64,000 nucleotides of DNA from Octopus sinensis (Eukaryota): positions 160,332,001-160,396,000 of the forward strand of contig NC_042997.1 of assembly GCF_006345805.1 (NCBI RefSeq). Reading direction: 5' to 3'. The notes below the pieces were generated by a model. It did not search any database. It was not told the DNA's origin and was given only the letters and a program-made list of their open reading frames with translations. The position numbers were made by a program, and so were the translations under genes. Positions 1 through 28,390 of this stretch are shown here, in pieces. Every line of letters begins with the position of its first letter. Position 1 is the stretch's first letter.

Positions 1-2637
1 AGAGATTTTGGAATAAAATCTGGGCAGAAGAAAAAACACACAACGAAAAGGTCCCCTGGATTGACAGAATATCTACAGAACTGGACCCCTTAGAAGAGCA
101 AAAGTGGGAGGGTGTCAAGGTAGAAGATATAAGATCTGCTCTCAGGAGGTCAAGCAAATGGAAGTCTCCAGGAAAGGATAAAATTCCTAACTTCTGGCTG
201 AATGCCTTCCCAGAGAGCCATGAACTGCTAACAGAACTGTACAATGATGTTTTGCAACACCCTAGTAGGATGCCTCCTTGGCTAGTTAATGGGTTAACAT
301 TCCTGCTTCCAAAAAGTGAAGAAACAAATGAACCAAAAAACTATAGACCCATAACCTGCTTAACAACTATGTACAAAACACTAACATCTGTCATGACGGA
401 ATATACCTATAGTTTTTTAACAGACAGCAGCATATTCCCTAATGAACAGAAATGATGTAAACGTGGATCCTACGGCTGTAAAGACCAACTACTCATCAAT
501 AAGATGATCTTAGAAGATTGTCACAAACGACACAAAAACTTATCAATAGCCTGGATAGACTATAAAAAGGCTTTTGATAGCCTACCACATAGCTGGATTA
601 GGAAATGCCTTGAAATGTATAAGATAGCACCAACACTGCGAAACTTCTTGACTGTAAGTATGAGATCATGGAGAACCACACTAACTCTGAACAGTGACAG
701 TGAATCCCTAAATGCTGGTGATGTAAAAATTTCGTGTGGCATTTTCCAGGGTGACTCACTGTCACCACTCCTCTTTTGTTTATCCTTAATACCTCTCTCA
801 AAGCTGCTCAATGATGCGCAGTACGGGTATAAAATGTTTGATAAAAATATAAATCATCTCGTTTACATGGATGATTTAAAGCTTTTTGCAAAAATGATCA
901 ACAACTCAAGGGCTTACTAGCGATAGTCAAACAATTCAGTGACGACATCAGAATGCAATTCGGCCTCGATAAATGTGCAAAGGCTACCTTTATCAAAGGA
1001 AAAATGACAGAAACATCTAACGTTAACCTTGACCAACAGAATGTCATAAAAGAACTAGACCCAGCGGAGAGCTACAAGTACCTAGGGATAATTGAAGGGA
1101 ACGGAATAAGGCATTCAGAGATGAAGGAAAGGATCAGGAGAGAATGCTATCGAAGAGTGAGAGCAATACTCAAGACAGAGCTGAATGCAAGAAACAGGAT
1201 CGAAGCAATCAATGCATTAGCTATACTAGTCGTGACTTACAGTTTCAATATTGTTAACTGGTCAATTACTGAAATATGTCAGCTCGACAGAAAAATAAGG
1301 AAACTGTTGACAATGCATAGAATGCACCACCCTAAGGCAGATACAGAACGACTCTATCTGCCAAGAAAAGAGGGAGGTCGTGGTCTTTTGCAACTGGCAA
1401 TAACAATGAAGATTGCTACAATTGGCCTAGACACCTACCTGAAAAACTCTGAGGACTGGATGTTAAAACTTGTCTCAAAACATGAAAACAAGAAAGCATC
1501 ATACTCAGTCACAAAACAGGCAAAGGAATATCTAAGTGAATTCCGAATACAACCAATTTCGGAATTAGAGATAGATATACAAGAAACAAGCACAGAAAAA
1601 GCTAGGCGCATGAAAACCCGTGCCAAAACTGCGGCCTTAGATATTCTGAATAATAAATGGCAAGAAAAACCTCTCTATGGCAAATACCCAAAGAGAGCGA
1701 ATAATGCAGATATCGACAAAGCCCTGACCCATCAATGGCTAATGGCCTCTGGCTTAAAATCTGAAACAGAGGGGTTTATCATAGCAGCTCAAGATGAATG
1801 CCTACCAACAAGAAACTACCAGGCCAACATATTAAAGATCAGAAGCAGTCCAACGTGTCGTGTATGCAAGCAACAAAATGAAACCATTGACCATGTGGTC
1901 TCCAAGTGCAGTCTTCTAGCGCCTACAGAGTATCTCAACAGGCACGATAGAGCTGCACAATATATTCACTGGGTAATCTGTAAAAACCTGGATTTGCCCC
2001 ATGAAAAAAACTGGTGGGAACACAAACCACCCCCAGTGCTTGAAAATGACCACATCTCACTCCTCTGGAACTTCACCATTCAAACTGACAGGAAGATAGA
2101 TGCAAATAGGCCAGACATCATATTGAAAAACTTCAAACAAAGAACATGCCTCCTCATTGATATGACTGTCCCAATCGATATAAACGTATCTGTCAAGACC
2201 TACTAAAAACTGAGCAAATATAAAGATCTTGAAATAGAAATCAGCAAAATGTGGAAGCTGAAGACTAAAACAATACGTGTTGTCATAGGTGCCCTGGGAA
2301 TGATAGCAAAAGGGGCTGATAGCTACCTAACTCAGATACCAGGAAACCCAAAAATGGCAGAAGTTCAAAAGATAGTGCTCATGGGAACTGCTCATATCCT
2401 ACGCAAAATACTCTCTATGTAATCTCAAGGTTTAAAACAAACATAATTTTCGGTTTAAAAAAAAAAAAAAAAAAAAAACTTTTTTTTTAGACATTCATTA
2501 GTACAACATCCCCACCCCCCAAATATATGGCACACTAGGCATAACAACAACATGAACTTCCAACCCTGTTGTCTCTTGAGGTCTCTGGGTGAGACTTGGA
2601 GCCAACTTGTACAAATATAAAGCAAAAGTCAAACATA

Positions 2638-2640
<3 letters not shown>
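1..2640 (+). mobile_element. R4/Dong-clade non-LTR retrotransposon (RT-CCHC-RLE); 5' part lies outside the window; mildly disrupted
   Basis: RT motifs [39 protein letters not shown]. Zinc knuckle CRVC..ETIDHVVSKC, RHD, and endonuclease RPDII..LID. Stop at ~453, frameshift at ~895, stop at 2204. The 3' UTR runs into (TAA)n at 2641-2697. Confidence 0.95.
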
Positions 2641-2698: not shown

Positions 2699-3276
2699 TT
2701 AACTTTGCCCTGATGCAGTACCAAGCAGTGGCTCTCATGGCTTCTGATCTTAACTTTGCCCTGATGCAGTACCAGGCAGTGGCTCTCATGGCTTCTGATC
2801 TTAACTGATTGGAAGTGTTATCATGTACATTGTTTTGTCTTGGTATAAAAGATGGGCTACAGCAAATATTCTGCTCAATACCACAGATTTGCTTGTCAGT
2901 TGTTTGACCTTAACCAGTTGAGCATGTCCCTTAGTGGCTGTCGATACGTGCATCTCTGATCGCGAGCAGAAGTAGTGGGGGAGCATCATGTGTTGAGAGG
3001 GATTCTTTGGAGTTTGAATAATTCGCCTCTGGAAACATAGGTGTTTCGTTCAACATCCTAAAGCAACCCTTATTCAGGAACTTTTTGAGCAGGATGGGCT
3101 ACTCGACCTGAAGAAAATTCTAACTGGGCCCCACCTGCAAGGTCATGTGCTGTTTATCTTGATATGAGATCACCATGTCGCGCACATATGATTGTGATGC
3201 ATGTGCCTGGTGTATCTTTATCAGACGGGTAGTCATGATGGGTATACTGGGCTTCGTATATTTTACCCCAGTGTCA
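2698..3276 (+). mobile_element. Non-coding ~560-bp SINE-like element in (TAA)n, with a 52-bp tandem duplication at its 5' end
   Basis: Near-identical reverse-complement copy at 13090-13648 and 3'-end pieces at 4915-4990 and 54871-54948. All abut TAA/TTA repeats. Confidence 0.8.
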
Positions 3277-4775: not shown

Positions 4776-4990
4776 TCCAGTTCAATATAAATCTAGCTAG
4801 AAAGCAATATTTTGAGAAGACAAACAAAAACAAAAAAAAATGGAGCAAGGGAATAATTTTAACTAACTTTCTTTGCCTCATGGCAAAGCACTCTTTTCAT
4901 TATAGTAGTTCCAGTTCATGATGGGTATACTGAGCTTTGTATATTTCACCCCAGTATCACTTTGGTGCCATGCACTGCTCTCTCACTCAA

Positions 4991-12734: not shown

Positions 12735-12878
12735 TGGAAAATACCTTAGGAATGAGCACCCAGGTTCGAAATTACCCCAAGACACCTGATGAAGGTTGGA
12801 GGGTATATCAGTCGATATGTTGTGTTAACAACAAACAAGATGAGGACAAATAATCGTCAAATGTAAATAATGTAAATA
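12735..12878 (+). ncRNA. Hammerhead-containing repeat module, copy A (decayed core)
   Basis: GACAC-CTGATGA-A-GGTTG..CAGTC-GATAT-GTT-GTGTT at 12781-12826. Homologous to 18518-18684. Confidence 0.65.
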
Positions 12879-13089: not shown

Positions 13090-13648
13090 TATTGAGTGAG
13101 AGAGCAGTGCATGCCATCAAAGTGACACTGGGGTAAAATATACGAAGCCCAGCATACCCATCATGACTACCCGTCTGATAAAGGTACACCAGGCACATGC
13201 ATCACAACCATATGTGCGCGACATGGTGATCTCGTATCAAGATAAACAGCACATGACCTTGCAGGTGGGGCCCAGTTAGAATTTTCTTCGGGTTGAGTAG
13301 CCCATCCCGCTCAAAAGGTCCCTGAATAAGGATTGTTTAAGGATGTTGAAAGAACCACCCATGTTTCCAGAGGTGAATTATTCAAACCCCAAAGAATCCC
13401 TCTCAACACATGGCTATGATGCTCCCCCATTACTTCTGCTCGTGATCAGAGATGCACATATCGTCAGCCACTAAGGGACATGCTCAACTGGTTAAGGTCA
13501 AACAACTGACAAGCAAATCTGTGGTATTGAGCAGAATATTTGCTGTAGCCCATCTTTTATAACAAGACAAAACAATGTACATGATAACACTTCCAATCAG
13601 TTAAGATCAGAAGCCATGAGAGCCACTGCCTGGTACTGCATCAGGGCA
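13090..13648 (-). mobile_element. Second, complete copy of the ~560-bp (TAA)n-associated SINE-like element
   Basis: Reverse complement of 2757-3276. Flanked on both sides by TTA repeats. Confidence 0.85.
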
Positions 13649-13658
13649 TTTATTATTA

Positions 13659-13700
<42 letters not shown>

Positions 13701-13877
13701 AATAGATATAGAACACCACTGAAAAATGCGAAAACCAAAAGAAGCAGCACATATGTTAGGACAAACAACCTCCTAAGCAGACCGAGTGCAGATATGAGTT
13801 GCATATGGGAATCGGTATTAAGGAAGGATAGAAGATATTAAATTTATAAGCCCTAAAATTCACTCGATACTTGTCCA

Positions 13878-13950
13878 CGTGTGGTGTAGGGGTTAAGAGC
13901 GCGGGCTACTAACCTCAAGATTCTGAGTTCGATTCCAGGCAGTGACCTGA
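13878..13950 (+). mobile_element. tRNA-derived SINE head (Pol III A and B boxes)
   Basis: TGGTGTAGGGGTTAAGAGC (A box/D arm), GGGCTACTAACCTC (anticodon-like arm), GAGTTCGATTCC (B box). Followed by (TAA)n. Confidence 0.75.
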
Positions 13951-13971
13951 ATAATAATAATAATAATAAAG

Positions 13972-14030
<59 letters not shown>

Positions 14031-14050
14031 AGTAATAATAATAATAATAA

Positions 14051-14340
14051 GGATTACACCGGGGACGTTAAACAGGATTACACCGGGGACGTTAAATAAG
14101 GATTACACCGGGGACGTTAAACATGATTACACCGGGGACGTTAAACATGATTACATCGGGGACGTTAAACATGGATTACACCGGGGACGTTAAACATGAT
14201 TACACCGGGGACGTTAAACATGATTATACCAGGGACGTTAAACATGATTACACCGGGGGCGTTAAACATGATTACACCGGGGACGTTAAACATGATTACA
14301 CCGGGGACGTTAATCATGATTACACCGGGGACGTTCAACA
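14051..14340 (+). repeat. Tandem array of 12 x 24-25-bp units (TGATTACACCGGGGACGTTAAACA)
   Basis: Units counted directly. No spacers. The last unit runs into the Dong 5' UTR. Confidence 0.95.
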
Positions 14341-17300
14341 TGTGAGAGCGATAAAACAGTGCTCCGAAATCTATCCACAAACATCGGAGACAAAGACATC
14401 GCATGGAGTTAAAAAATAACTGACAAAGGATTGGACTATATCCGAGTAAGTAATACTCATTGAAATTTATTACTATTTCCAAAACGAAATGATTTATTTT
14501 AACTCGATATCATCTCCACCTCTAACACAACACATGTAAACATGCTTGATACATTACGATCCATCAACACCAGATCATATCCGGTCCCAAACACTCGGGA
14601 AGTCCGTACATTAAACTTACAACAGAAAATGTACGAAAAACTACATGTGTAAAACAATGTGACAACAGAAATGAACGGACCGGTACCCTACGAAAATGAC
14701 GACCGTCAAAATAATGGGCCGGACGTTGTTCCTCATGTCCCGCAAATAAAACCCAAAAGACATAAATGGACACGTGAGGAATACATTTCTATCCTACACG
14801 CTTACTTTACAGCTGTGCTCTACCCAAAGAATAAGAATACAACAACACATACATACAAAATATGGAAGAAAAATAACATAAATAAAGAACGGGATACAAC
14901 AATGAACCCTAATAAACTAGCATATATACGGAGATATATTTTCAACGCAAAAATATATCAGAAATAGAAATAGAACATTTAAAAGAAAAGTTACATCAGG
15001 AAAATGTAGATAGAAGCCACACAACAATGCCAAATAATATAAACACTGAAACAGTAAAACACGAAGACAAACGTAACATTTCCAACAAAAAGGATGTAAA
15101 CAAAAAACAACAAACCCAGACCGTAAGGATACATAATAATACACGACAAACAGCAAGCCAAAACACGACAAACAAACATACGGATGAGAAAGAAAGCGAC
15201 ACAAATCTAAAACCTGGAAACAACAAAGGGGAGCCTAATGATTATGAAACTATAAAAAGTAGAATAATCAAAGAACTGAAAACCACAGAGCTCAAAATGG
15301 ACCACCGACCATACCTCCCAAAAATCAAAATAGACAAAACAACATCAATTATAAACAACATAAACCTAGCCGTCACGAAATTAATAGCCACTGAAACAAA
15401 AAGCGATATCACTGAGCTAAATGACTTAGTATACGCAGCAGCCACTGCAGCCACAAAAGAAGCTGGATACTCACTCAAACCCATCCAAACAGGAGTACCA
15501 CCACCCAAACAAACCATGTGGATAAATAACATCCAAAACAAAACACAAAAAATGAGAAAAGATCTGTCGATTCTTAATGAAATCAGTAGACAATCAACGC
15601 TACTAAGCAACAAAAAGAGAACAAAAATACTCCTCAAATACAACACCACAGAAAAAGATTTACCTGAGATAACAGAAAAGCTGAAGCAAGATATCCTTGC
15701 CAAAGCACAAAGAATCCGCCGGTACGAGAAACGCCTACGTTCCTTTGAAAAAACAAGCAGTTCAACTCCAACCCCAAAAAGTTCTACCAACAACTGGGCA
15801 AAAATAAAATAGAAATCACTGCAGCACCAACGGCAGAAGAAGTGGAAGAATTCTGGAGAGAAATATGGTCGGCGAACGAACGACCAAAAAAAAAAGAGTA
15901 TTAAAACAACAAACTCAGCATCTGAGCAACTTTGGACCCCCATAACAACTGAAGAGGTCACCCAGGCACTGCAAAGACTAAGCAGCTGGAAGGCACCTGG
16001 GCATGAGAAGATCCCCAAATTCTGGTTGAAATATCTAACAGGAATGCACAAAAACCTGGCTGAAAACTTTAACAACATACTGGCAGAGCCAGAGACAATG
16101 CCTGAATGGATCACGGAGGGGAAAACCATCTTAATTCTCAAATCAAATGAGACAGCAAAACCAGAAAACTACTGTCTCCCTACAATGTGCAAAGCATTTA
16201 CTGCAGTAATATCGCAAAGATTGAACAAGCACCTAGACGAAAATAACCTGTATCCAGAAGAGCAGAAAGGATGCCGCAAAGCTCATATGGCTGTAAAGAT
16301 CAACTAATGATCAATAAAGCCATAACTGAAGACAGCCACAGAAAGAAGAAAGGCCTCAGTATGGCTTGGATCGACTACAAAAAGGCGTGTGATAGCATAC
16401 CCCACACATGGATCCTCGAAACACTAGCCATGAACAAAGTTGCACCAACAATTATAAAATACATAGGATACTCTATGAATAAATGGCAAACAGTGTTACA
16501 GCTCCAAACAAAAGAGGTACTTGTGAAAACCAAAGCCATCCCCATTAGAAGAGGAATATTCCAGGGAGACACGCTCTCTCCACTCCTTTTCTGCTTGGCA
16601 CTGTCACCTCTATCGGATATGCTAAACAGAACTGGATGCGGATATAAATGTTACGGCAAAACGATCAGCCACCTTTTATATATGGATGACATAAAACTAT
16701 ACGCTACAAATAACAAACAGCTGGAAACACTACTAAAGACAGTTGATGGATTTACCAAAGAAATATATATGAAATTTAGATAAGAGAAATGCGCCAAAGT
16801 AACCCTGAAAAGAGGAAAACTAGTTAAGAGTAGCAACATCACACTAGATAAAACCAATGAAATAAAAGAACTATACCAGAACCAAACTTACAATTACTTA
16901 GGAATCCATGAACTAGATAAGACACAACACACAAAAATGAAAGAGAAAATAAAAGAAGAATATTATAGACGAGTTAGATCAATACTGAAAACAGAGCCCA
17001 ATGCTAAAAACAAGATAATAGGTATCAACACTTTAGCCGTCCCAGTTATAAGTTACAGCTACAATATCCTTAACTGGACACTAAATGAACTGACCAAAAT
17101 AGATAGGAAAACAAGAAAAATAATGACAGGATCTAGGATGCATCACCCAAAATCTGACATAGAAAGGCTATATATACAACATATAGAAGGTGGTAGAGGC
17201 CTTATACAGCTGGAAAACTACTATAAAATAACCACCATAGGACTGCAAAAATATCTACTCCAGAAGGAAGGAAAACTGATAGAAATAGCGACAAAACACG

Positions 17301-17421
17301 AGCAAAACAAAAACTGTTCTCAGTATTTAAGAAAGCTGACATATACAAACAAGAAATCATACCACCTAACAAATATGAAGAAGAAGAAGAAGAAGAAGAA
17401 GAAGAAGAAGAAGAAGAGAAG

Positions 17422-17453
<32 letters not shown>

Positions 17454-17474
17454 GTAGTAGTAGAAGAAGAAGAA

Positions 17475-17505
<31 letters not shown>

Positions 17506-18487
17506 AAAAGAAGAAGAAGAAGAAGAAGAAGAAGAAGAAGAAGGAGAAGAAGAAGAAACAACAAAAGCTATAAAACAAATGAAATCCAAACTAAAAATAG
17601 AACAGCAAAGACCTATGATAAAACGATAGCAAGAAAAGCCCCTTCATAGGAAATAGTGGACTAAACTAAATGCAAAAGAAATAGACAAAGAAAAATCCCA
17701 ATAATGGTTGAGAAGCTCAGGACTCAAAGCAGAGACAGAAGGATAATTAATTGCAGCACAAGACGAAAGCCTCCCCACCAGAAATTACCAAAAACATGTA
17801 ATGAAAAGAAATATAACAAATAACTGCAGAATATGTGGAGATGGACAAGAAACAATAAATCATATTATCTCTGGCTGCCCAGTCCTGGCTAAGAAGGAAT
17901 ATATTCACAGACACGACAGATTTGGGACCTATATACACTGGAAACTATGCCAACATTATGGAATAACAACAGAAAAAAGGTGGTATAGGCACACACCAGA
18001 AAAGGTCACAGAAAACGAGAAAGCAACCATACTCTGGGATATGCCAATACACACAGATAGAGAAATTAAGGCCAACAGACCAGATATAGTTGTCAGAGAT
18101 CATGAAGAAAAAATTGCTTTCTAATTGATGTATCAATACCAGCGGATGACAACGTGTCTCTAAAAGAAATGGAGAAACTTTCAAAATACAAAGACCTGGA
18201 AATAGAGGTAACCAGAATGTGGAATCTAAAAACAGAAACATTTCCTATCATAATAGGTGCATTAGGCATGATAAAAAAAATATTCAGACAAATACATAAC
18301 AAAAATACCAGGACTTACAAACACATATAACATACAGAAAATTGCACTACTAGGCACTGCACACATCCTACGCAGAACACTTTCCATACAATAACCATCA
18401 GAGCATCACAACAAATCACAGCACATACCTAAGGCACACAGAGCTGCGCTCGGTAGTGAAGTGAAAGCACGCTATGAAAATATACTA

Positions 18488-18491
<4 letters not shown>
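14051..18491 (+). mobile_element. Apparently full-length R4/Dong element, multiply frameshifted
   Basis: N-terminal KRHKWTREEY (Myb-like). RT GIFQGDTLSPLLF and YMDDIKL, CRIC..ETINHIISGC, RHD, ANRPDIV. ORF remnants span ~14671-18394. (TAA)n on both sides; internal (GAA)n at 17375-17556. Confidence 0.95.
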
Positions 18492-18517
<26 letters not shown>

Positions 18518-18518
<1 letters not shown>

Positions 18519-18684
18519 TCGAAAAATACCTTAAGAAATAGAACCCAGTTTCGAAATTTCCCCAAGACACCTGATGAAGGCTGGAGGGTATATCAGCCGG
18601 AAAGTTGTGTTAACAAGCATGATGAGGACAAATATCCGTCAAATGTAATAATGTACATAATTCCTCATCTCTTAAATATAGAAC
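18518..18684 (+). ncRNA. Hammerhead-containing repeat module, copy B
   Basis: GACAC-CTGATGA-A-GGCTG(loop)CAGCC-GGAAA-GTT-GTGTT at 18566-18611. Downstream GATGAGGA/TCCTCATC stem. Confidence 0.7.

Positions 18685-23389: not shown

Positions 23390-28390
<5,001 letters not shown>

Follow-up and report, generated by a model that had tools for sequence, protein, structure and literature searches.

Penelope-like elements (PLEs) are retrotransposons for which a general plan of a pseudo-long terminal repeat (pseudo-LTR or pLTR), an inversion and a tail has been described (PMC8557442). In PAc (Poseidon_Ac) of Anolis carolinensis one open reading frame (ORF) of about 835 aa encodes a reverse transcriptase (RT) and a GIY-YIG endonuclease; it starts in the hammerhead ribozyme of the pLTR, two RT start sites flank the tail, and two priming sites have been shown in vitro (PMC11167929). 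Here we describe an element of this kind from Octopus sinensis, which is represented by a decayed copy in a window of 64,000 nt (positions 160,332,001 to 160,396,000 of contig NC_042997.1, assembly GCF_006345805.1), i.e. the whole stretch of DNA that was analysed. At this locus a unit made up of a tRNA-like head, a (TAA)n linker, a minimal hammerhead and a tail is interrupted by a 4.4-kb insertion. It is near certain from the anatomy of the family that this unit is the pLTR of an autonomous Penelope/Poseidon retrotransposon. On balance we favor the fuller reading in which this pLTR, interrupted here by a Dong element, carries in its tRNA-derived head the likely internal RNA polymerase III (Pol III) promoter of the element.

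The octopus element shares with PAc the single RT-GIY-YIG ORF, which begins no later than the pLTR hammerhead, as well as a pair of 3' ends with the tail between them, and inverted arms. It differs in that the octopus ORF has its ATG after a (TAA)n leader, 34 nt ahead of the hammerhead core, and in that the parts of the PAc report available to us describe no tRNA-derived head or Pol III promoter (PMC11167929). This tRNA-derived leader is the unusual part of the element. No description of a tRNA-headed PLE was found in the open-access literature, a scope that leaves Repbase and Dfam outside, and two octopus repeat papers, in the portions at hand, list Penelope, Dong and tRNA short interspersed elements (SINEs) without such a structure (PMC13282606, PMC8967140).

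A coding element behind the repeat unit

The sequence-only reading of this DNA had placed the start of the unit at 13878. This boundary proved wrong: copies matched a query of the head and 28 upstream bases over its whole length, which prompted an upstream extension, and the sequence common to the family reaches 178 nt further, to 13701, where it represents a Penelope ORF whose 3' end is broken. The upstream ORF end has 2,144 first-look candidate copies, and the sequence shared among copies spans more than 2.3 kb. At other loci the tail continues straight into the body of the element, and the family unit consists, in order, of the tRNA head, (TAA/CAA)n, an ATG, the hammerhead in the first codons, the RT, a GIY-YIG-type endonuclease, a stop codon, 29 nt and the next head. 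A consensus built from 66 body segments and the pLTR (2,933 nt in the sense direction, beginning with the head and including the second pLTR) contains a single 835-codon ORF, which begins at pLTR position 151 and runs through the hammerhead and an RT to a C-terminal GIY-YIG endonuclease with CCHH residues. Over 808 aa its product shares 37% identity with an 836-aa protein of Anolis carolinensis (P0043), which we infer from species and length to be PAc itself, and the C-termini of the two align, including a CSC motif and two histidines. An 847-aa relative (P0008) with 57% identity retains the N-terminal motif encoded by the hammerhead; a search of metagenome contigs with this protein recovered no relative. 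Pfam RVT_1 matched a natural copy fragment, and Pfam GIY-YIG gave no score on such fragments.

A natural full-length copy (L371) shows an inverted arm, a head-bearing pLTR, a 2.35-kb body and a second pLTR, and in both this copy and L373 the pLTRs occur as partial tandem copies with the inverted, 5'-truncated arm that is often found in such elements. This anatomy matches PAc and the general pLTR/inversion/tail plan as far as these are set out in the sources seen (PMC11167929, PMC8557442). The Zn linker motif of the Neptune type is absent from the 835-aa ORF and present in a second PLE family of the window. By anatomy and similarity, rather than by a tree, the element is placed with the endonuclease-bearing (EN+) PLEs of the Penelope/Poseidon type. 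The second family, at 25790-26712 on the minus strand, carries a CxxC linker of the Neptune type, is represented by 2,776 first-look candidates and has a 3' region that leads into (CA/TA)n. Separately, L238, L244 and L248 are internally deleted pLTR-body-pLTR copies with differing junctions and a body of about 400-450 nt, which could be transcribable mini-elements.

Exact genome matches number 1,651 for a 27-mer of the head and 9,555 for a 22-mer of the tail, with none for the reversed control of either, indicating that this is a family repeat and not a chance likeness; a 22-mer of the upstream region has 714, i.e. about 7% of the tail count. Among 95 evenly spaced 10-kb genome stretches taken as a random sample, seven contained pLTR pieces, with 11 tail arms in total, which extrapolates to about 31,000 pLTR arms genome-wide (95% range 16,000-56,000). 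The prediction that removal of the Dong element would restore a natural contiguous unit was borne out, since in 106 of 121 distinct head 3' ends the tail follows on the same strand within 260 nt; five others lead into a TAA-flanked insertion (two Dong, three another element) and ten into something else.

Copy ends and the hammerhead

One long and one short 3' end were observed in 47 of 50 two-armed inserts, with the arms ending near positions 304 and 275. The optional tail thus sits at one end only, as an extension of about 25-30 nt, and in view of its match to the two RT start sites of PAc this pattern gives genomic support for two-site, both-strand PLE priming. The two pLTR pieces of the window itself were considered as arms of one insert, a candidate that was rejected as both lie on the plus strand.

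The copies also bear on the earlier proposal that the unit is a free-standing, non-autonomous element. The SMalpha repeats of Schistosoma, to which it had been likened, are tRNA-related. They are described as SINE-like repeats with a type I hammerhead, and the available part of the source does not describe them as belonging to a coding PLE (PMC8490949). Like the octopus unit, the non-LTR retrozymes are pLTR-related, short and of high copy number with a type I hammerhead; they are defined, in the part of the source seen, as head-to-tail tandem repeats without an ORF, whereas in the octopus we see single or inverted copies that have the same master as the coding element (bioRxiv 10.64898/2026.07.22.740005). 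An independent tRNA-SINE or circular retrozyme that cleaves itself and is mobilized in trans would account for the short length of most copies, whose start lies at the head or further downstream, and the hammerhead core is intact in the consensus and in 52 of 103 copies. This explanation is nevertheless largely refuted, and we regard it as very improbable. In the studied copy itself an ORF end precedes the unit. Divergence from the consensus is alike in head-start copies (6.0%, n=26) and in ORF-linked ones (6.2%, n=32), and no convincing diagnostic tail site separates short from ORF-linked copies as a SINE subfamily: two sites reached a nominal P<0.05 among about 700 comparisons, in which the tail was compared and the head left out. 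Same-strand pLTR pieces lie behind only two of 218 arm ends, neither of them a head (the loci being samples of 3-10 kb), so that tandem arrays, or head-to-tail units each with a hammerhead as in retrozymes, are almost lacking. Finally, the copies show no pile of 5' ends at the hammerhead cut site. The head has the A and B boxes of a SINE2 element, and no non-autonomous lineage apart from the coding element was found; the family behaves as a SINE source yet is neither a SINE nor a retrozyme. The sequence-only reading had a real feature before it and misread it as a SINE: mobilization by a Penelope RT stands, and what had been taken for a free-standing element is the pLTR, together with the beginning of the ORF, of an autonomous Penelope element.

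As had been proposed, the hammerhead belongs to the minimal Penelope type. The family consensus, GAAACGTT, equals the sequence expected beforehand and has an intact CUGAUGA/GAAACGUU core; it folds into stems I and II and displays the CUGANGA and GAAA boxes, the UH site and the palindromic loop of a minimal type I hammerhead, lying within the pLTR as in Penelope/Poseidon elements. As in the hammerheads of metazoan PLE pLTRs, it is of type I with a 5-bp stem I, a stem II preceded by an extra base, palindromic 15.2-16.2 positions and no stem III, features with which weak, dimer-only activity is predicted; it differs in its predicted cut triplet, GUU (PMC4209133, in the part consulted). The core is intact in neither window copy, and across the copies it is conserved no better than the sequence on either side, a pattern to be expected if copies decay once they have inserted. 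Rfam hammerhead and tRNA models matched neither the window (E<=1) nor four good copies (E<=10), and a partial, hand-set structure of the dimer hammerhead has -20.2 kcal/mol against -31.2 kcal/mol for the minimum free energy fold. Three raw RNA-seq runs were also consulted, which come from a related organism, are unstranded and are dominated by embedded copies; no RNA back-joint at the cut site was present among the joints listed in their reads, a weak test. The lack of a 5'-end pile at the cut site is in line with the finding that PAc hammerhead mutants still inserted in vitro (PMC11167929).

The tRNA-derived leader and its transcription

The head appears tRNA-like in its A and B boxes and in its colinearity only, being colinear end to end with host tRNAs, with +1 at pLTR position 30; the best match among 27 distinct host tRNA sequences, which represent few isotypes, is Arg-TCT (z about 7). 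ARAGORN found no tRNA in the window at default settings, and at a lowered threshold gave on the consensus a weak untyped call and a spurious call on the minus strand. Given that weak call, we consider it unlikely that RNase P cuts a tRNA fold here. Octopus also has old tRNA-Arg SINEs, OR1 and OR2, for which a literature search returned nothing.

The 5' ends were determined for 70 head-bearing arms from sets not selected on upstream sequence. Twenty-nine of these end at positions 39-79 and 41 reach position 38; among the latter, 29 end at 20-38, three at 13-16 (hairpin matches) and nine continue upstream. The hazard of ending is 0.065 per nt over positions 20-38 as against 0.013 per nt over 39-79. 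The sense strand of the 2,933-nt consensus is free of TTTT, where 2.9 runs are expected in the ORF by synonymous shuffling (P=0.031) and 5.4 by base shuffling (P=0.0025). Nine decayed natural stretches, all sharing one ancestor, hold four runs of four T (T4) versus about 36 expected. The controls retain theirs: four Dong stretches have 24 T4 runs versus 18.5 expected, and a second, Neptune-like PLE family has 6 versus 5.2. A T run of at least four follows within 60 nt in 36 of 36 host tRNA flanks, being exactly T4 in 18. The arm 5' ends at the edge of the leader, together with a TTTT-free consensus alongside controls that keep their runs, make Pol III transcription of the coding element likely, and we judge a Pol III mechanism to be reasonably probable. 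Of the earlier suggestion of a Pol III unit, the tRNA-derived head holds, with Pol III likely, and a separate short Pol III unit does not.

Under such a mechanism transcription by Pol III would begin some 13-15 nt upstream of the A box and follow the TTTT-free strand. The RT-endonuclease protein would attach to the RNA close to where the ORF starts and, as shown for PAc in vitro, use two sites about 25-30 nt apart to prime cDNA, working from both strands of the cut target; the outcome would be inserts of two arms, of which one has a long end and the other a short one. cDNA made on head-initiated RNA would halt at the head, leaving most copies SINE-like, while a longer RNA, copied at its downstream pLTR, would give cDNA that runs into the ORF, as at the studied locus. 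The hammerhead is predicted to be weak, to depend on dimers or protein and to have no part in setting copy ends, and Dong would have entered the linker later, as it would any other (TAA)n tract. In the strongest form, Pol III would make the whole 2.9-kb coding RNA from a captured tRNA promoter, with the terminators purged and translation proceeding cap-free via the unstructured (UAA/CAA)n leader, so that the element would be both a "LINE" (long interspersed element) and the source of tens of thousands of SINE-like tip copies; this we hold tentatively, with somewhat less than even confidence.

Several observations weigh against Pol III transcription of the coding element. GGGG runs are also missing from the consensus (none versus 3.6 expected, P=0.018), so that the lack of TTTT is not wholly specific, and the TTTT P value is modest and comes from one consensus and one control PLE family. 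In the consensus a hairpin of -11.6 kcal/mol at positions 16-38 coincides with the 5'-end pile-up, and many arm junctions fall inside it, so that the 5' ends might result from folding back or from stalling. The unstranded RNA-seq, uninformative on this point, follows genomic copy abundance (depth mostly below 20 in the body and at least 1,000 in the tail) and shows no piles of starts or ends at the head or the cut site. Among 30 loci with a body 5' end, the head is the starting point of the 5' pLTR in only three; three others have an ORF end upstream and the rest are truncated. Translation of an uncapped RNA with a two-codon upstream ORF, which the A box holds before the main ATG (pLTR consensus positions 36-44), is also left unexplained by a Pol III origin.

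The same hairpin, its self-complementary letters used at many junctions, and the missing G4 runs would fit an ordinary Pol II-transcribed Poseidon element, in which the captured tRNA-SINE head is a passenger of the 3' untranslated region and the hairpin stalls the RT or lets the cDNA fold back. In characterized Penelope an intron-containing 5' untranslated region overlaps the internal promoter (PMC8557442, in the part seen), which in our view implies Pol II. However, no pile-up of this kind is seen at stem II of the hammerhead, which forms a hairpin further downstream, several single-arm copies adjoin flanking DNA at 23-35 without inversion, and T4 is missing across the whole coding strand, unlike in the controls; we consider this explanation unlikely. 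A mixed mode, in which Pol III makes short head-initiated RNAs that yield SINE-like copies and the translated mRNA arises where Pol II reads through copies that are in tandem or driven by the host, would resolve the translation problem. It agrees with the tandem junctions that have an ORF end upstream of the 5' pLTR (L240, L245 and L247) and with the ratio of upstream to tail 22-mers given above. It leaves unexplained the absence of T4 along the entire 2.5-kb ORF, beyond the first few hundred bases, and appears quite improbable.

The locus, its Dong insertion and the meaning of the family

The features of the locus are given in Table 1. The A/B-box head, the (TAA)n on both sides, the 4.4-kb RT/REL element, the minimal hammerhead with its mutated GAAAC and the second, headless module copy were all recognized in the sequence-only reading and are all present.

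Table 1. Features of the interrupted Penelope copy and its surroundings, in window coordinates
Feature	Position	Strand	Remarks
Second pLTR piece, headless, 5'-truncated	12738..12878	+	Consensus positions 137-277; short end; GAAA box mutated
3' end of Penelope RT-GIY-YIG ORF, 5'-truncated, frameshifted	13701..13849	+	Stop 13847-13849; translation of copies corresponds to endonuclease C-terminus
Spacer between stop and head, 29 nt	13850..13878	+	3' part pairs with first head bases (consensus hairpin)
tRNA-derived head	13879..13949	+	A box 13882-13892, B box 13925-13936; 4-nt deletion at 5' edge of the locus copy
pLTR (TAA)n linker, left part	13950..14050	+	Repeat tract
R4/Dong-type non-LTR element, near-full-length, decayed	14051..18490	+	24-bp 5' tandem repeats (14052-14342), RT, C-terminal CCHC, REL-type endonuclease motifs
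pLTR (TAA)n linker, right part	18491..18518	+	Possible target duplication indistinguishable from repeat
pLTR 3' part, the first ~50 codons of the next ORF unit	18518..18684	+	Start codon 18537-18539 degraded; terminates at long ("tail") end
Minimal type I hammerhead	18566..18611	+	Stem I 18566-18570/18607-18611; CTGATGA 18571-18577; stem II 18579-18598; GAAA box mutated 18599-18602; predicted cut after 18606

The insert is an element of the R4/Dong type, a clade assignment made by motifs and target rather than by phylogeny: it possesses RT, CCHC and restriction-enzyme-like (REL) endonuclease motifs and sits in (TAA)n. It resembles the R4/Dong non-LTR retrotransposons in its RT and REL endonuclease and in insertion into (TAA)n, a targeting known for Dong, and no difference was found in the part of the source seen (PMC7998251). 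A 23-mer of its 3' end has 7,490 exact genome matches, and a (TAA)n-type repeat follows 30 of 30 sampled Dong 3' ends. The earlier idea that the linker supplies new Dong targets holds, without the linker being used significantly more than other (TAA)n. Dong clusters directly abut a pLTR tail in three of 26 independent cases, with a fourth via another piece, and these three or four of 26 compare with seven of 95 (TAA)n clusters of the random sample that are pLTR linkers (Fisher P=0.45 and 0.25); a preference of Dong for the linker was accordingly rejected as insignificant. The Dong insertion at this locus is therefore ordinary.

Further (TAA)n-associated sequences were seen. A 556-bp element flanked by (TAA)n lies at 13094-13649 on the minus strand, with other copies at 2757-3276, 4916-4988 and 54873-54948; the copies are about 95% alike, abundant in the random sample and often within pLTR linkers, and the element is probably a non-autonomous partner of Dong. 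Two Dong-like elements of other families, at 456-2638 (plus strand) and about 49900-53541 (minus strand), both end in (TAA)n and have RTs with 65-71% DNA identity to the main Dong. Elsewhere, L362-L364 (G000:C1:3762625-3766396) form an array of Dong 3' fragments separated by (TAA)n, in which Dong has inserted repeatedly into its own tail. The Dong ORF of the window holds a (GAA)61 expansion at 17377-17557.

If Pol III indeed makes the RNA of a translated retrotransposon, this would break the working rule by which a Pol III head is read as the sign of a non-coding parasite, and the octopus element would offer a compact, testable system for the cap-independent translation of a Pol III transcript. 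Even without Pol III, an abundant "tRNA-SINE" of roughly 16,000-56,000 arms is the tip of a Penelope element, which repeat annotation would file wrongly.

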